Origin: an uncultured Gammaproteobacteria bacterium
Lineage (GTDB): Bacteria > Patescibacteriota > Patescibacteriia > Magasanikbacterales > GWA2-37-8
DNA length: 25,195 nucleotides
Assembly (NCBI GenBank): GCA_964396295.1
Contig: CAYNEQ010000001.1
Span: 1-25,195 of the forward strand
Direction of reading: 5' to 3'
The translations under genes were made by a program, and so were the position numbers. This document shows, piece by piece, positions 1,698-20,594 of the stretch. The first letter of the stretch is position 1. The number at the start of each line of letters is the position of its first letter. The notes below the pieces were generated by a model, which saw only the letters and a list, made by a program, of their open reading frames with translations, made no database searches and was not told the origin of the DNA.

Positions 1698-2882
1698 TTA
1701 TTTTATCTTTACAAAAAACCGACTTCCTTTTTGTACAATATCTCCAGACTTCACCATCTCATCAATTTTCTCCACCTTCTTATCATTAATCTTCACACCA
1801 CCCTGCGCAATCACCTGTCTAGCTTCTGATTTACTTTTACAAATACCGGCCTCTACTAGCACGCTGATAATATCATTAGCGCTTGGCTTTAACTCCGCCA
1901 TATCCTGTGGCTTTGCTTTTTCTTGAAACACTTGCTGGAAATGCGCCTCCGCTTTCTTCGCAGATTTTTCTCCCAAGAAAGTTTTTACTACTTCATACGC
2001 CAGCTTCAGTTTTTGATCGCGGGGATTCTGCATCTCGGATTTAATCTTTTTTATTTCTGCCATTGGTAATGTCGTGCATAACTCAAACCCATTATCTATC
2101 ATACCGTCCGTCCAACTCATCACCTTGCCAAACATATCTTCCGGCGTATCGGAAAATGCCACCATATTTCCCTCGGTCTTGCCCATCTTCTTACCACTGG
2201 AATCCACTAATAATTTTGTAGTCAAGACAAATTTTTCTTTATTCTTCAAATCTTTCATAAGTGTCCGACCGGCCAACATATTAAACGTCTGGTCATTACC
2301 ACCAATTTCACCATCGACATCCATAGCCACACTATCATAACCCTGCATCAACGGATATAAAAATTCATGCAGATAAATTGGCTTTTCTTCTTTAATTCTA
2401 TTTTCAAACATATCCCGCTCCATCATGCGCTGTACCGTAAAATATGAAGACAATTCAACCACATCGGCGAAACTCATCTTTGCTAGCCATTTACTATTAA
2501 ACTTTACCTGTACCGGATTTTTCCCGGAGAAATTAAGCACCGCCGCAGCCTGTTTTTTATAATTCTTACAATTCTCAAGCACTTGTTTACGGGTTAATTT
2601 TTGTCGGGCCGAAGTCTTATCAGTGGGATCACCAATCATGCCGGTAAAATCACCGATAAGCATAATGACCTTATGCCCCAAATCCTGGAACTGGCGAAGT
2701 TTAAGCATGGTAATGCCATGGCCAATATGTAAGGTCGGCGCTGTCGGATCATAGCCAGTATAGAGCGTGAGCTGTTTGCCGGATTTGAGTTGAGCTTCCA
2801 AAAATTCTTTTTTGGGATAAATATTTTCCACACCTCTTTCTAAAAGCTCGGCTATTTTTTGTGGGTCGGTATTAACTGACAT
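1698..2882 (-). CDS. tyrS: Tyrosine--tRNA ligase
   Basis: GYDPTAPTLHIGH, IGDFTGMIGDPT, YPLMQGYD, GGNDQTFN, KMGKT (KMSKS equivalent), and a C-terminal S4-like domain (SKSEARQVIAQGGVKIN). Confidence 0.98.
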   Translation of the reverse strand: MSVNTDPQKIAELLERGVENIYPKKEFLEAQLKSGKQLTLYTGYDPTAPTLHIGHGITMLKLRQFQDLGHKVIMLIGDFTGMIGDPTDKTSARQKLTRKQVLENCKNYKKQAAAVLNFSGKNPVQVKFNSKWLAKMSFADVVELSSYFTVQRMMERDMFENRIKEEKPIYLHEFLYPLMQGYDSVAMDVDGEIGGNDQTFNMLAGRTLMKDLKNKEKFVLTTKLLVDSSGKKMGKTEGNMVAFSDTPEDMFGKVMSWTDGMIDNGFELCTTLPMAEIKKIKSEMQNPRDQKLKLAYEVVKTFLGEKSAKKAEAHFQQVFQEKAKPQDMAELKPSANDIISVLVEAGICKSKSEARQVIAQGGVKINDKKVEKIDEMVKSGDIVQKGSRFFVKIK

Positions 2883-2887
2883 ATGAT

Positions 2888-5800
2888 TTATTTTAAATTC
2901 TCTAATTGCTCTACAAATTTTTCTAATTTACTTTTTGCCTCAGTCAACTTTTCTTTTTCTTTTTCTACAACTGCCTTCGGTGCATTCTGTACAAATTCTT
3001 TATTGGCTAATTTATTTTCCAATCCAGAAAGATATTTTTTAATTTCGGCGATTTCTTTTTCCAATCTTGGTTTTTCTTTGGCTGCATCTATGGCTCCGGC
3101 AAGATCTAAAGAAACTTCAGCGCCAGACTCTACAAATTCTAATTTTTCCAACCGAGCCAAAGCCTTGATTATTTCTTCATTTTCTTTTACTAATCTTTCA
3201 TTCTTACCAACATTAATCTTTGCGATTATCTTTTTGGCTGGCTCTATCTTATATTCGGCACGAAGCGAACGAATATGGGTTACAGGAAACTTGATAACAT
3301 CATAAAAAATATTTAATTCCTTCGCTTTCTTTTCTGAAATTTCAACAAATTCTGGCCATTTTTCAACCATTAAAATTTTATCCTTTCCGTAAATTTCTTC
3401 CCAAATAGATTCTGTAACAAACGGCATAAACGGATGCCATAATTTCAAAATCGTATTTAAGATTAAATTTAATATCTCCGATTTACCGCCTTCAACCTTA
3501 GCTATTTCCAAATACCAGTCCGCTATATTATCCCAAGTAAATTCACGCAAAAAATCACCTACTAAAGAAAAGTTATAATCTTCTATGTTTTCAGTCACAA
3601 ACTTAACTGCCTTATTTAAACGAAATAAAACCCACTCATCTGCTAAAGTTTTTGCTTTCAGTTCTTTAATCTCTACCTTCGGTTCATCAATATTCAGGAG
3701 CATGAACCTGGAAATATTCCATAACTTATTTGTAAAATTGCGGAAGCCGGCAATTTTTTCTTCTGACAACTTCATATCATTGCCCGGTGTATTGCCAAGT
3801 AAGAGTGAAAGCCGCGTGGCATCAGTACCATACTTGGCTATCATATCCAGCGGATTGATAATATTTCCCAAAGACTTACTCATCTTTCTACCCTGCTCAT
3901 CGCGCACCAGTCCATGTAGGTACACGGTTTTAAACGGAACTTCTCCCAACGTATAGGTCGTCATCAAAATCATTCTTGCTACCCAGAAAAATAAAATATC
4001 ATAGCCAGTTTCCATGACAGATGTCGGATGAAATACTGATAAATCAGCAAGTGTTCCGTCGGAAGCAATACTTACTGTCGCCACACCAGCTGGATCCAGT
4101 AGTAATTTTTCGGTGTATAAATCAGCTGTCGTATGGGAACGCATGACGCGTATTGGATCGCCGTGAGAGACGATAAGAATTTTTTTATTTGGATATTTCT
4201 GTAGCGTGTCTTTAAAAAATTCTGTCACGCGAGATTTTAATTCGGTAAAAGATTCAAGGCCATTGGTTCCGTCCCAACCACCCGGAGCCTTACGCATATT
4301 CATATAGTCGCCGACTGGCTTACCGTGCATGTCATTACCACCAACTTCCCGGAGGCGATCGTCGGTTATGATTTCTACACCAAGAGTTTTGGCTACAATC
4401 TCCGCAGTTTCTTGGGTTCTGGTAAAGGGGGATGCAATTATCAGTTCAATGCCAGATGATTTTAGTTTTTTGGCTGCTGCTTCCACTTGTTTTCTTCCTT
4501 TACTGGTCAAAGAAAATTTTCCCTCATTAGTTGTATCTAAGATGGCTTGTATATTATGCTCAGCTTCTCCATGGCGCATCACCGTAAACTCCGTCGTTGG
4601 CCAGCCAAGGGTAGAAAATGTCCAGAGACCGGATGAAAACCAGGTGTCTAAGGTATCTAAATCTTGAAAATAAAATTCTTCAGCCGGTCTGTCAATATAA
4701 CTTTCAGCTGTTGCAACACATTGGGTATCTATAGCACTATAATATTTTAAGTCCTGCCACCCCACTATACCCGACTTAACGAGCTCGTATGCCATACGAA
4801 AAGTAAGGCCACATACACTTCTATCAGAATTTGAAAACCAAACAAATTCGTGTAATTTTTTTTGTCTTTCACCAGTAGTAAGAAATTGTGAAGCTATTTC
4901 ACTAAGTTTATTTTGGATTTGATCGGTAGCGATAATACCGCCTTTATAATATAAAAATGCTGTATGATTTTTTGGGTCTGTAATATTATAGTAACTTGGA
5001 ATCTGATGCCCATACCACAACTGGCGACTTATACACCAATCCCGTAAATTATCTATCCAATGGAAGTAGGTTTTCTCAAATCTATCCGGAACAATCTCTA
5101 TTTTTTTATCACGCACCGCTTCTTGCATTAACTGTTTCAAAGTTTTATTTCCTCTGTCTTTTATTTTCTTACTCACATCCACAAACCACTGTGTCTTAGG
5201 GAGCGGCTCAATAATATCACCAAAGCGATCAGAAGTACCGACATTCTGAGTAATGTCTTCTTCTTTTTCTAACAAATCATTTTCTCGTAAATAATTTACA
5301 AATTTTTCTCGCGCCTCTAATACTGGCAGGCCCGCATAAGCATACATCCCAGCCATGAGCGTCATCTTGCCGTCTTCACCAATCACCTGAATAAGTCCAA
5401 TGTCATTTCCAGCCGCTTTTTGCTTTTGATATATTTCAAAATCAACCGCGCTATGAGCTGGCGTCACGCCCAATGCACCCGTACCAAAATTTGCATCGAC
5501 ACTATCGTCGGCAATGATTTTAATTTTGAGCGGAGCGTCTGTGCCTAAATCAACGGTAAACTCCTTGCCAATATATTTTTTATATCGTTTATCTTTCGGA
5601 TTGACTGCCACGGCCGTATCGCCAAGCTTTGTCTCTGGTCTGGTAGTCGCAATCGTAATCGGAAAATCTTTACTATATTTGAAGTAATATAATTTTGCCG
5701 GACGTTCGACATAGATAATCTCATCATCACTAATAGTGGACTGGCCTTTGACTGACCAGTTGATCACCCGATAGCCGCGATAAATCAAACCGTCTTCGTA

Positions 5801-6353: not shown

Positions 6354-6382
6354 TTGACAAATGGTCAATTTTGCATTATACT
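6354..6382 (+). promoter_or_regulatory. sigma70-type promoter for the high-GC orphan ORF
   Basis: TTGACA (6354-6359), 17-nt spacer, TATACT (6377-6382). Confidence 0.75.
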
Positions 6383-6396
6383 CATTTTTTAGGTAC

Positions 6397-6410
6397 AGTA
6401 TAATTATACT
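6397..6410. promoter_or_regulatory. Perfect 14-bp palindrome, candidate operator
   Basis: AGTATAATTATACT is its own reverse complement and lies just downstream of the predicted start site. Confidence 0.4.
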
Positions 6411-6600
6411 TCTTTCGACTATCATCTCTAGTTATAGAGCTGATTGAGAACGTGGTATACGGTCCGTACATACGGGCCAAAGACCCATTTCAAAAGAGCG
6501 TTGTTTAACAAGGTCAAAAGTACCAGCCTGGCTATTAGAAATTTATATGATTTTTGATAGCTTTGCTGGTGCTCAACCAACCGGCAGCAACGGAGGGCAG

Positions 6601-7005
6601 ATGGACTCGACCATGGCTACACCAAGGCGGGAGCTCCGCTCTCGCCGACCCGCACAGATCTTCGCGATCTGCTGCCTCATGGCAGGCGGGTTCGTCATGT
6701 ACCACACCAGGACCACCACCAACGAGTCGGCCGACCCCTTCTGGAAGAAGGTGAAGCTGGTGGCAGCCACCATGCCACACCGCACGCCGACGCGCGCCTA
6801 CTGCGTCGACATTGACGACATGGGTCGCTATGTCGACGAGAATGGCCAACTCGCCGACCGCAACAGTGGCGACGGCGCCTTCGTGGGCTGCTCACCCGCC
6901 TACAAGACGCTGGGTGCTGCTATCGATGCGGCCCGCAAGAGGGACCCTGACTACTACCAGGTGCAGGGCCCGCCCATCATCGGTGAGAACATGGAGCTCC
7001 GCTAG
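6601..7005 (+). CDS. High-GC orphan protein with a single N-proximal TM/signal segment (134 aa; ORF is open from 6547)
   Basis: GGAGGG SD at 6592-6597 precedes ATG 6601. About 64% GC with about 84% G/C-ending codons (hand count). Basic N-terminus RRELRSRR is followed by hydrophobic IFAICCLMAGGFVMY. Confidence 0.8.
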   Translation: MDSTMATPRRELRSRRPAQIFAICCLMAGGFVMYHTRTTTNESADPFWKKVKLVAATMPHRTPTRAYCVDIDDMGRYVDENGQLADRNSGDGAFVGCSPAYKTLGAAIDAARKRDPDYYQVQGPPIIGENMELR

Positions 7006-7030
7006 ACGGAGCCCCTCACAACAACGTTTT

Positions 7031-7065
7031 GACACCCTCGCAACCTCGGGGGTGTCTGCATTTTT
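7031..7065 (+). terminator. Intrinsic terminator-like hairpin
   Basis: GACACCCTCG-caacct-CGGGGGTGTC (10 bp, one G-U pair), followed by tgcaTTTTT. Confidence 0.65.
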
Positions 7066-7082
7066 AAGCGCTTCTTAGATAG

Positions 7083-17810: not shown

Positions 17811-19202
17811 TTATTTATTTATCTGTATATGCGAATCTCGCAACGCTTGTATGGGCAATTCACTCGGCGCGTCCATAACCGCCGTATGCGCCGAGCCAGT
17901 CATAGGAAATGCTTGCACTTCACGTAAATACGTTTCATTAGTCAAAATCATTATCATTCGTTCTACACCCATACCAATACCTCCATGCGGCGGCGTACCG
18001 TACTTAAAGGCTTCAAGCATATGGCCAACTGACTCTTCAATCTCTTGATCACTATAGCCCATGATTTTATAGGTAGCCCGCAGTACTTCTGGGTCATGAG
18101 CACGAATACTACCGCCACCAGTTTCGTAGCCATTACAGACGAGATCGTATTGAGTAGTCAAAATATTTTCAATGTTTTTTCCTGCTAAATGGTCGGCTAA
18201 AAATTCTGGCTTAGGAGAGGAAAATGGATTGTGGGTAAACGTCCAACCGCCTTCTTCGGTTTTTTCAAAAAACGGAAAATCCACTACCCAGGCATAAGCC
18301 AATACTCCGTTAGCCTTGTCCTCTTCGGTGCGCATATCAAACTTATCAGCGCCATATTTAGCCATTGATTCTTGATACGTCAGCCGAGGAAACGGTTTTT
18401 GCTTAATCGTATACCCCAGAGATTCCACGGTCTGGGTAATCATACCTTCCACCATTTGCATCACATCTTCACGTTCTACAAAACTCATCTCAATATCGAT
18501 TTGGGTATGCTCAAACCCACGATCAGCCCGAGGATCTTCATCACGGAAGCAACGAGCGGTCTGGAAATAGCGCTCAAACCCACTGGCCATCAAGAGCTGT
18601 TTATATTGCTGCGGACTCTGTGGCAAAGCGAAAAATTTACCGGCCTGCAAACGAGACGGCACAATAAAGTCACGCGATCCCTCTGGAGTAGCTTTGGTCA
18701 AATAAGGGGTCTCAATTTCTGCAAAATGATTGGATAATAAATATTGGCGGCAGGCCTGGACATAGGCATTACGCAAGCGAATATTTTTCTGCAACCGCTC
18801 GGAGCGTAAATCGAGATAACGATACTTGAGTCTTAACTCCTCATTGATTCCGCTGGTATCTTTATCAATTTCAAATGGCGGTGTCTCGGCTTTATTAAGC
18901 ACCACTAATTTCTTCATCAAGACTTCCACATTGCCGGTCGGCATATCTGGATTTTTTTGTTTGGCTCCGCGCTCGTTTACCATACCGTGGATTTCTAATA
19001 CCCATTCCGGACGAACATCTTTGAGCAGATCTTGTGACCGCTCATCCAGTTCGCTCGGCACACCGACCACCTGCACAACCCCCTCCCGGTCACGCAAATC
19101 CAAAAAGACAATTTTGCCCATATTGCGCCGGGCATTGACCCAGCCTTTGAGTAATACCTCCTGCCCCACTTTATCTGTTGTTTCGGTTGTGAGAATTCTC
19201 AT
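17811..19202 (-). CDS. aspS: Aspartate--tRNA ligase, bacterial type lacking the GAD insertion domain
   Basis: GWVNARRNMGKIVFLDLRD, RLKYRYLDLR, ALPQSPQQYKQLLM, CFRDEDPRADR, HNPF, GTPPHGGIGMGVER. Only 463 aa. Confidence 0.96.
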   Translation of the reverse strand: MRILTTETTDKVGQEVLLKGWVNARRNMGKIVFLDLRDREGVVQVVGVPSELDERSQDLLKDVRPEWVLEIHGMVNERGAKQKNPDMPTGNVEVLMKKLVVLNKAETPPFEIDKDTSGINEELRLKYRYLDLRSERLQKNIRLRNAYVQACRQYLLSNHFAEIETPYLTKATPEGSRDFIVPSRLQAGKFFALPQSPQQYKQLLMASGFERYFQTARCFRDEDPRADRGFEHTQIDIEMSFVEREDVMQMVEGMITQTVESLGYTIKQKPFPRLTYQESMAKYGADKFDMRTEEDKANGVLAYAWVVDFPFFEKTEEGGWTFTHNPFSSPKPEFLADHLAGKNIENILTTQYDLVCNGYETGGGSIRAHDPEVLRATYKIMGYSDQEIEESVGHMLEAFKYGTPPHGGIGMGVERMIMILTNETYLREVQAFPMTGSAHTAVMDAPSELPIQALRDSHIQINK

Positions 19203-19241
19203 AAATTTATCTATAATTAGCCATTATTTCGCTTTAATATA

Positions 19242-19270
19242 TTGACAAAATTGATTAATTATGGTATGAT
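19242..19270 (+). promoter_or_regulatory. sigma70 promoter with extended -10
   Basis: TTGACA (19242-19247), 17 nt, TGg-TATGAT (19265-19270). Confidence 0.78.
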
Positions 19271-19342
19271 TAGTTTCTATCGATGGAATTATCCCCTCTT
19301 AAAACCAGGGGCTAAAACCTCGATAGCACAAGGAGTACGAAC

Positions 19343-19516
19343 ATGGCTGCACCGCTGATCATCGTCCCGCCCGCTAACCCGGCCTTGCCCCTGCTTCTTC
19401 ACCACAGCAGGGCCGACTCGGAAGTTCCGATCTGGTTGGCCATCCCGATCGTGATTCTCTGTATCGTCATGATCGGTACGCTCATCTGGGGCGTGTGGTC
19501 GCTACGCAAGCTCTGA
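19343..19516 (+). CDS. Small high-GC single-TM protein, 57 aa (below the ORF-track size range)
   Basis: MAAPLIIVPPANPALPLLLHHSRADSEVPIWLAIPIVILCIVMIGTLIWGVWSLRKL*. AAGGAG SD at 19330-19335. About 60% GC; 46 of 57 codons end in G/C. Confidence 0.75.
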   Translation: MAAPLIIVPPANPALPLLLHHSRADSEVPIWLAIPIVILCIVMIGTLIWGVWSLRKL

Positions 19517-19560
19517 CACACAAGAGGCCATCGATAGCTTAATCTCCTTTCCTGTTTCCT

Positions 19561-19600
19561 GGCCGGCCGTGCTCTGCACGCGCCGGCCTTCGCTTTTTTT
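19561..19600 (+). terminator. Intrinsic terminator-like hairpin
   Basis: GGCCGGC-CGTGC-tct-GCACG-c-GCCGGCC, then ttcgcTTTTTTT, ending at the gap stop codon. Confidence 0.65.
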
Positions 19601-19601
19601 A

Positions 19602-20594
19602 TTAAATATACAACTCCGCAATTTCAATCAACCGATTCGCATAGCCAACCTCATTATCATACCAGGCTACCACTTTTACCAAATTTCCACCAATCACATT
19701 GGTCAAACTCAAATCTACAATGGCTGAATGGGTGTTACCCACAAAATCTGAAGAAACTAATTGTTCATTTGTGGTAGTAAGCACTCCCGCAAACCGCTCG
19801 GTCTTGGACGCATCAACCAGCGCTTTATTTATTTCTTCCTTAGTCACATTTTTTTTGAGCAGCACTGTCATATCTGAGACTGACACGGTTGGCACCGGCA
19901 CACGCAAGGCTAAGCCATCAAACAACTGCACTAAACCAGGAATAACTTCGGTCACGGCAATGGCCGCGCCAGTGGTTGTTGGCACAATATTTTCTGCAGC
20001 GGCTCTGGCTCGACGCAAATCTCGGTGCGGACCGTCTTGTAAATTCTGATCTGCGGTATAGCCATGCGCCGTAGTCATCATGGCTTTTTCAATGCCAAAT
20101 TTTTCATTGAGCACGGCCATCACTGGACCTATGCTATTTGTAGTGCAAGAAGCATTATTGATGACGGGCGAAGTTTCTTTTTTACACTTGGCACAATTAA
20201 CGGCGCGAACATAGGTCGGCACACCGCCGCCTTTGGCTGGCGCGCTAATCACAACTTTCTTGGCACCGGCTTTGAGATGCAAACTTGCGCCATCTTTATC
20301 GGTAAATCTACCGGTACATTCGAGCACTATATCTACTTTTAATTTATTCCACGGCAACATGCTTGGATCCTTCTCGGCAAAGACAGGAATTTTTTTGCCT
20401 TTAACAATCAAATTCTTTTCATCATATTCCACCGGCAATTCATATTTGCCATAGGCCGTGTCGTATTTTAACAGATGCGCCAAGGTTTTGGTATCAGTCA
20501 AATCATTAATAGCGACAATTTTTATTTTTTTTGCAAATGCGACTTTGAAGGCTTGTCTGCCTATTCTTCCAAAACCGTTGATAGCAATGTTCAT
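19602..20594 (-). CDS. gap: Glyceraldehyde-3-phosphate dehydrogenase, type I
   Basis: INGFGRIGR, AINDL, NASCTTN, DLRRARAAAENIVPTTTGAA, RVPVPTVS, WYDNEVGY. Confidence 0.98.
   Translation of the reverse strand: MNIAINGFGRIGRQAFKVAFAKKIKIVAINDLTDTKTLAHLLKYDTAYGKYELPVEYDEKNLIVKGKKIPVFAEKDPSMLPWNKLKVDIVLECTGRFTDKDGASLHLKAGAKKVVISAPAKGGGVPTYVRAVNCAKCKKETSPVINNASCTTNSIGPVMAVLNEKFGIEKAMMTTAHGYTADQNLQDGPHRDLRRARAAAENIVPTTTGAAIAVTEVIPGLVQLFDGLALRVPVPTVSVSDMTVLLKKNVTKEEINKALVDASKTERFAGVLTTTNEQLVSSDFVGNTHSAIVDLSLTNVIGGNLVKVVAWYDNEVGYANRLIEIAELYI

Follow-up and report, generated by a model that had tools for sequence, protein, structure and literature searches.

An accessory cassette for an orphan 57-residue membrane peptide in the gap-aspS spacer of a Patescibacteria genome, with a possible 3'-UTR mask of its Shine-Dalgarno sequence

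In a genome of the Patescibacteria (873 kb assembled, 41% GC, 80% complete), the 399-nt spacer between aspS and gap carries on its plus strand a full expression unit that is antisense to both genes, and this raises the question of what the unit encodes, where it came from and how its mRNA might be controlled. The unit was studied within a window of 25,195 nt, by which we mean the whole stretch of DNA analysed. The explanation that we favour, with a probability of about one half, is that of a self-contained accessory cassette for an orphan 57-residue single-pass membrane peptide, which lies in opposite orientation in a variable gap-aspS slot, was most likely acquired horizontally and belongs to a genome-wide set of GC3-rich, moron-like genes bearing a Shine-Dalgarno (SD) sequence. 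This is a prediction for a single genome, made from sequence. The cassette itself is a genuine accessory gene, specific to this strain, that encodes a small membrane peptide; its horizontal origin is most likely, judged from composition alone, and no donor was found for the cassette. The coordinates of the features are collected in Table 1.

Table 1. Features of the gap-aspS locus and examples of GC3-rich genes of the same genome
Feature	Position	Strand	Remarks
aspS	17811-19202	-	Divergent from the cassette promoter; 6-23 nt 3' of gap in six congeners
Predicted sigma-70-type promoter	19242-19270	+	TTGACA, 17-nt spacer, TG-extended TATGAT; 11/12 matches
Predicted 5'-terminal hairpin	19277-19326	+	Outer stem 19277-19286 x 19318-19326 with one bulge; inner stem CCCCU/AGGGG
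5'-end motif CTATCGATGG	19277-19286	+	Read directly
CCCCT	19293-19297	+	Read directly
AGGGG	19307-19311	+	Read directly
CCTCGATAG	19318-19326	+	Read directly
SD, AAGGAG	19330-19335	+	7 nt before ATG
ORF, 57 codons	19343-19516	+	ATG 19343, TGA 19514-19516
Distal partner of the 5' end, CCATCGATAG	19528-19537	+	Perfect 10-bp 5'-3' helix; duplex -14.1 kcal/mol
Pyrimidine-rich anti-SD tract	19544-19560	+	CTCCTT at 19544-19549
Predicted intrinsic terminator	19561-19600	+	12-bp GC stem and U7; hairpin -24.5 kcal/mol
gap (GAPDH)	19602-20594	-	Converges on the cassette, all of which would be covered by antisense RNA on read-through
Another GC3-rich gene in the window	6354-7066		
GC3-rich example	C11:2205-2831		
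GC3-rich example	C14:1778-2392		
GC3-rich example	C55:1494-2081		
GC3-rich example	C66:2052-2687		
GC3-rich example	C88:2125-3075		
GC3-rich example	C102:2477-2929		

Direct reading of the sequence located every motif listed in an earlier note on this DNA, and the predicted promoter, SD, ORF and terminator bear out its description of a stand-alone transcription unit for a peptide of less than 60 aa with one transmembrane (TM) segment. Because the promoter matches 11/12 positions, the predicted start at 19277 is reasonable; the C at this position is an unusual initiating base, and a start at A19279 would leave a 5'-3' helix of only 8 bp. The leader is 66 nt long, and the 3' UTR has 44 nt, rich in pyrimidines, before the terminator, where the anti-SD tract contains two more TTCCT repeats that could serve as back-up anti-SDs. 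The earlier note had also remarked that the terminator hairpin lacks a U-tract on the gap strand, and in fact the hairpin follows the gap stop codon there and runs into AGGAAACAGG. On the promoter side, the congener G007 shares the 48 nt adjoining aspS, TTGACAAAA among them. The cassette sequence was identical in an independent ENA assembly and was also present in Logan contigs of two studies (identical in wastewater, and as a 151-nt piece in an activated-sludge run); all other copies found were 100% identical, with no polymorphism. We rejected an assembly chimera or contamination, as the junctions with gap were present in independent assemblies.

The peptide consists of a head of 25 aa rich in proline at the N-terminus, a single TM helix and RKL at the C-terminus, with a strong hydrophobic segment at residues ~28-54 (Kyte-Doolittle 19-residue maximum of 2.84), so that the size and the single TM segment proposed previously hold, while the proposed basic C-terminus reduces to R-K-L. 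The ORF had GC1/2/3 values of 0.58/0.44/0.81 versus 0.50/0.36/0.39 for the genes of the genome (GC3 standard deviation of 0.056), a GC content of 0.61 versus 0.41 for the genome, and a CAI of 0.61 versus 0.76 +/- 0.03 for genome genes. It thus displays a coding-type periodicity with foreign codon usage, a GC3 periodicity that does not tell which strand is coding, and a 57-codon open frame is not rare per se in DNA of 61% GC. No relative of the peptide was found in ~15 billion proteins, and it retrieved no homologue but itself in a word-indexed search of 5.8 billion clusters or with full HMMER against 1.84 billion representatives; six-frame searches of 100 genomes from the same family and DNA-pattern scans of contigs from metagenomes and genomes likewise gave no other. 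The homologues with covarying UTRs that had been suggested as a check were absent from the protein, six-frame and DNA-pattern searches. A weak match in contig C61 of the closest congener was rejected, since it comes from another reading frame within a methyltransferase-like gene. The Pfam search (E up to 10) yielded only spurious matches and NCBIfam none, so that no toxin family was recognized, and the look-alikes in the ESM Atlas were only generic single-TM fungal peptides (up to 0.80). The cassette is single-copy in the genome, did not match phage or plasmid DNA and contained no tRNA or tmRNA according to ARAGORN.

To place the cassette in its genomic context, we compared the slot among related genomes. 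The genes gap and aspS were neighbours in 14/15 same-genus genomes; in six species they are separated by only 6-23 nt, which implies one operon, and in the eight other congeners the spacer measures 296-1002 nt and holds unrelated inserts. Altogether, the cassette-bearing genome (G000) and these eight congeners present at least seven unrelated inserts (loci L011-L025, from the 15 genomes formed by G000 and the 14/15 congeners), which include same-strand genes of native composition, one of them a DUF5674 gene, as well as opposite-strand, promoter-bearing units with small ORFs. In G015, the closest congener (aspS 94% identical), and in G007, the insert likewise runs on the opposite strand, from a TTGACA promoter through a small ORF for a hydrophobic product (29 and 88 aa, respectively) to a terminator, and apart from the 48 nt next to the promoter its sequence does not resemble the G000 cassette. 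In G015, the stretch preceding the start codon of the 29-aa ORF is predicted to pair with the 3' UTR of that unit; in G007, no such pairing is predicted. A homology between the G000 and G015 peptides was considered and rejected (BLASTP E = 0.74). This variety of inserts points to the gap-aspS junction as a hot spot of cassette exchange. In that small orphan genes replace one another at a fixed chromosomal position, the locus resembles integron cassette arrays and CALINs, but it differs from them in being a single unit with its own promoter and with no attC-like site. Phage morons and similar autonomous units of promoter, gene and terminator with an atypical composition are comparable in that the cassette is a self-contained expression unit of a composition unlike that of the host genome, inserted between conserved genes with an occupancy that varies among relatives; unlike phage morons, it resides in a bacterial chromosome with no phage context, is GC-rich instead of AT-rich, and bears an SD in a host whose own genes do without one.

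The recurrence of opposite-strand units at this site in three species, with unrelated ORFs, could also mean that what functions is the RNA, or transcription as such, and that the ORF is incidental to an excludon-like element that sets how much gap transcription enters aspS. Excludons and other cis-antisense arrangements have been described in Listeria, and the cassette is comparable to them as an opposite-strand unit located where read-through is needed to reach the next gene; such a placement would make the expression of gap-aspS and that of the cassette mutually antagonistic. The cassette faces gap head-on, its strong promoter firing into what is a contiguous operon in six congeners, and the predicted RNA is strongly structured (z = -4.6). 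Nevertheless, this explanation is highly improbable in our view: the ORF starts with ATG behind a canonical, ideally spaced SD, shows the three-base GC periodicity given above and encodes a clean TM helix. Moreover, no Rfam family matched the RNA even at E <=10: Rfam 15 gave no match at the gathering cutoff and only two with E up to 10, in the AT-rich promoter and 5' leader (19191-19308, E ~6.6). The overlap also differs from that of excludons, as it is deduced only from a terminator that has no U-tract on one strand.

The genome contained at least 21 discrete GC3-rich ORFs (GC3 of 0.73-1.0; 57-316 aa), 15 of them with a TTGAC[AT]-16/18-TAnnnT promoter within 260 nt upstream. Most GC3-rich ORFs share one layout, with a TTGACA promoter and a long leader carrying a strong SD in front and a GC-rich 3' UTR and a terminator behind, and several encode lipoproteins or single-TM proteins. 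Pfam returned no match for the ten GC3-rich ORFs scanned. The class is not all orphan: a DUF3228 protein outside those ten has 1872 homologues, and the protein of another GC3-rich cassette has 111, the named ones being from Patescibacteria. The homologues of the larger cassette genes form GC-rich islands in other Patescibacteria genomes, for example an ORF of 0.72 GC between flanks of 0.41. The DUF3228 (PF11539) gene at C55:1494-2081 has a GC3 of 1.00, and its homologues in four other Patescibacteria genomes (L051-L054) have a GC3 of 0.89-0.98 with flanks of 0.41-0.58 GC, so that the extreme GC3 is either carried along by the gene family from host to host or kept up within it. A published survey has reported that gene transfer is frequent among Patescibacteria (PMC12455944).

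The class also stands apart in its translation signals. Native genes carried AGGAG or GGAGG in only 0.9% of 434 long ORFs, and the four-base SD core occurred in 5.3% of them versus 6.7% in shuffled upstream regions. At the same time, the 16S rRNA of the congeners G010 and G011 (L135 and L136) ends in the canonical CACCTCCTTT, so the anti-SD is kept; strong SDs are carried only by the GC-rich cassettes. The gap-aspS unit displays each of the moron-like class features tested, namely its own promoter and terminator, high GC and GC3, a variable slot and a strong SD.

We then considered whether the complementarities within the cassette could be due to chance. The 10-mer of the 5' end has two occurrences in the 873-kb genome, both in the cassette, in inverted orientation and 251 nt apart. 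Its presence in a shuffled 3' UTR had P = 1.5e-5, and the longest complement between the 5' UTR and the 3' region had p = 0.003 against shuffles; the 10-nt complement of the 5' end in the 3' UTR is thus clearly non-random. By comparison, the anti-SD CTCCTT arose in shuffled 3' UTRs with P = 0.037 and is only marginally non-random. These pairings between UTRs were judged by a perfect-complement test, and RNAduplex z-scores were set aside as uninformative because of long internal loops. Among cassettes, a complement of at least 10 nt between the 5' and 3' UTRs of the same unit was found in 4/15 versus 4/210 mismatched pairs, and all four own complements begin 12-31 nt after the stop codon. Three cassettes for proteins of 151-208 aa (C11:2205-2831, C14:7913-8368 and C55:1494-2081) have a perfect leader/3' complement of 10-13 nt, each with p <=0.007. 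Since cassettes for proteins of ordinary size have it too, this complementarity is not toxin-specific here.

These data bear on a plainer explanation, namely that the cassette is an ordinary gene for a small membrane protein, the complementarities of which have no switching role: the 5' hairpin would stabilize the mRNA, or the motifs with an ATCGAT core would act on DNA as operators or recombination scars. Hairpins at the 5' terminus are common mRNA stabilizers. The 5'-end motif is near-palindromic (CTATCGATAG would be a perfect palindrome) and occurs in three copies, one at the transcription start and another 41 bp downstream, and the 5'-3' complement was not conserved in the four homologous DUF3228 cassettes of other genomes. 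Against this, both downstream copies are reverse complements that include the non-palindromic flanks, an orientation that RNA pairing needs but a symmetric DNA site would not; the 10-mer has no copy in the rest of the genome, which rules out an operator or recombination site of a recurrent kind; and own complements are in excess among the cassettes and keep their distance from the stop codon, as described above. We consider an ordinary gene with idle complementarities quite unlikely.

The fold predicted for the 324-nt RNA has -120.9 kcal/mol. In agreement with the earlier note, the 5' end can pair in two ways that exclude each other: the local hairpin (-17.9 kcal/mol by itself) has a pair probability of ~0.9 in the ensemble of the full-length RNA and the 10-bp 5'-3' helix one of ~0.09, and forcing the latter costs 1.6 kcal/mol. 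The proposed pairing of the SD with the 3'-UTR anti-SD was also recovered: in the full-length RNA, the SD had an unpaired probability of 0.11 and was predicted to pair with CUCCUU at 19544-49 at ~0.68, and when the 3' UTR was removed in silico, in line with the suggested comparison of full-length and 3'-trimmed RNA, it became 0.86-0.96 unpaired. The arrangement of the two states had to be revised. The local 5' helix had been thought to occlude the SD, which in the predicted folds is masked instead by the 3' CUCCUU tract, and the 5'-3' helix had been thought to leave the SD free, but the forced 5'-3' state leaves it partly paired. It stands that the two long-range helices cross; they need not be strict alternatives, however, as their coexistence in a pseudoknot, which is outside the model of the folding program, is possible. 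With a cut at 19540-43, the 5'-3' helix becomes the minimum-energy state and the SD is about half free.

The tract that would mask the SD resembles the ribosomal partner of the SD. The 16S rRNA is absent from the host assembly and that of congeners was used instead: CTCCTTTC (19544-51) equals the 3' tail of the 16S rRNA in two of them, and the computed SD:anti-SD duplex (-7.5 kcal/mol) is about as strong as that of the SD with the 16S tail (-7.8 kcal/mol). In a folding of 11 GC-rich cassettes, the share of SD pairing that falls in the 3' UTR was 0.85 here and <=0.02 in the ten others. Mutating the anti-SD in silico raised the SD accessibility only to 0.35. The masking lay at the 6.5th percentile of shuffled 3' UTRs, and 45% of these still masked the SD, a weak statistic because the tract is pyrimidine-rich; the latter figure counts in favour of an ordinary gene. 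On the basis of these models, a translational mask of the SD by the 3' UTR is plausible. In equilibrium folds of nascent lengths, the unpaired probability of the SD was 0.3-0.94 for most lengths and fell transiently to 0.10, so that nothing would prevent co-transcriptional translation, and no metastable protection of the nascent RNA was predicted.

The mechanism that we propose for the accessory cassette is as follows. The strong promoter would give an RNA of ~324 nt, with the predicted start and end. After transcription of the 3' UTR, the pyrimidine tract in it, a mimic of the 16S rRNA tail, would pair with the SD, and the 5' end would be held either locally, in its hairpin, or by the 3' UTR, in a clamp of 10 bp. 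Since the SD would be masked by the 3' tract and the 5' end engaged in a hairpin or clamp, the finished mRNA is proposed to be poorly translated, and the product would come mainly from nascent or 3'-shortened transcripts. Transcription continuing past gap towards aspS would contribute antisense RNA as well as transcriptional interference.

Such a scheme recalls type I toxin mRNAs of the hok and aapA1 type, in which 3' fold-back silences and 3' trimming activates (PMC5416894), and in which metastable hairpins protect the nascent RNA (PMC5416894, PMC6733600). As in hok/sok of plasmid R1 and aapA1/IsoA1 of Helicobacter pylori, the product is a small hydrophobic peptide, the mRNA is predicted to be masked through a long-distance 5'-3' interaction that involves the SD, 3' shortening frees the SD in silico, and the 5' end has local and distal alternative partners. 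Unlike them, the cassette has no dedicated antisense antitoxin gene and no predicted metastable hairpins in the nascent RNA, and its mask is a pyrimidine tract of the 3' UTR between the stop codon and the terminator; there is no sequence relationship, and the cassette is single-copy.

A genuine type I toxin-antitoxin-like module would then be one in which the peptide damages membranes, 3' fold-back silences the full-length mRNA until 3' trimming activates it, and an antitoxin RNA derives from gap read-through or from an unrecognised antisense promoter, the duplex being degraded by RNase III. The mechanism is known (PMC5416894), and a small hydrophobic peptide with a strong promoter and a strong SD, in a genome otherwise devoid of SDs, would suit it, as would the two alternative partners of the 5' end, with the perfect 10-bp 5'-3' helix, and the predicted 3'-UTR-dependent masking that is unique among the 11 cassettes. 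The sister genome G015, with an unrelated 29-aa hydrophobic ORF at the same site whose start region pairs with its own 3' UTR, is consistent with it too. Genes for RNase III and PNPase are present in the genome; for RNB (RNase II/R), the search of this 80%-complete assembly gave none. Moreover, the promoter scan disclosed no convincing promoter of aspS itself, which, together with the terminator that has no U-tract on the gap strand, makes antisense read-through across the cassette plausible.

The antisense strand offers less in the way of a dedicated antitoxin promoter, as no minus-strand site reached 9/12 inside the cassette and the weak sites detected matched only 8/12 (19316-19288) and 9/12 (19683-19653), the best of them in the WYDNE codons of gap. 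These conserved GAPDH codons (19653-19683, minus strand) read TGGTATGATAAT, which resembles an extended -10 element and is preceded by TTGGTA (9/12), and RNA could start from this site through the gap stop codon, antisense into the cassette; the resemblance is probably a by-product of the protein motif. Other features also speak against a type I module: nascent transcripts are predicted to leave the SD accessible (0.5-0.94), no Pfam or NCBIfam toxin family was matched, the unit is single-copy, the TM helix lies in the C-terminal half after a proline-rich head of 25 aa with only two basic residues behind it, the masking statistic is weak, and 5'-3' complementarity also exists in cassettes for proteins of 150-210 aa. 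Membership of the type I class thus fails on the features that can be tested here (antitoxin gene, toxin family match and predicted protection of nascent RNA), and we regard a genuine module as possible, though rather unlikely, while the analogy is reasonable for the way in which the mRNA may work. A bolder version, that this is the first type I-like toxin module of the Patescibacteria, its mRNA locked by a 3' UTR mimicking 16S rRNA, its antitoxin being the read-through of the essential gap-aspS operon around it and its release occurring only on the collapse of housekeeping transcription, is very unlikely.

For the accessory cassette that we favour, the mask, if it works, would represent a compact case of translation control by mimicry of the rRNA tail, and in an organism whose own genes make no use of SDs, it would turn the SD-bearing accessory genes into a separately controllable class. 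Should the peptide be toxic, the logic of type I toxins would reach the ultra-small, host-dependent Patescibacteria, for which our literature search turned up no type I toxin-antitoxin system. The locus also illustrates the exchange of small envelope-directed genes in these reduced genomes, at fixed positions between housekeeping genes.

Some further observations concern other loci. Two more small single-TM ORFs were noted in the genome, one of 63 aa (C18:11372-11563) with a GGAGG SD and a strongly basic C-terminus, located at a contig end so that its 3' UTR is missing, and one of 75 aa (C13:10908-11135) with a TTGACA-17-TAAACT promoter upstream. In addition, a leader of ~120 nt is conserved upstream of a protein family of ~300 aa that is confined to the Patescibacteria (L044:2398-2540, minus strand; L045:1702-1845, 2860-3003 and 4000-4143; L046:2860-3003). 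The changes seen in its two hairpins look compensatory, the block GGGAA..GAACCC..ACCAA..GGAG before the ATG is invariant, and the leader is a candidate for an undescribed cis-regulatory RNA. At L045, the genes of this family follow one another in tandem, every gene having a promoter and a terminator of its own.
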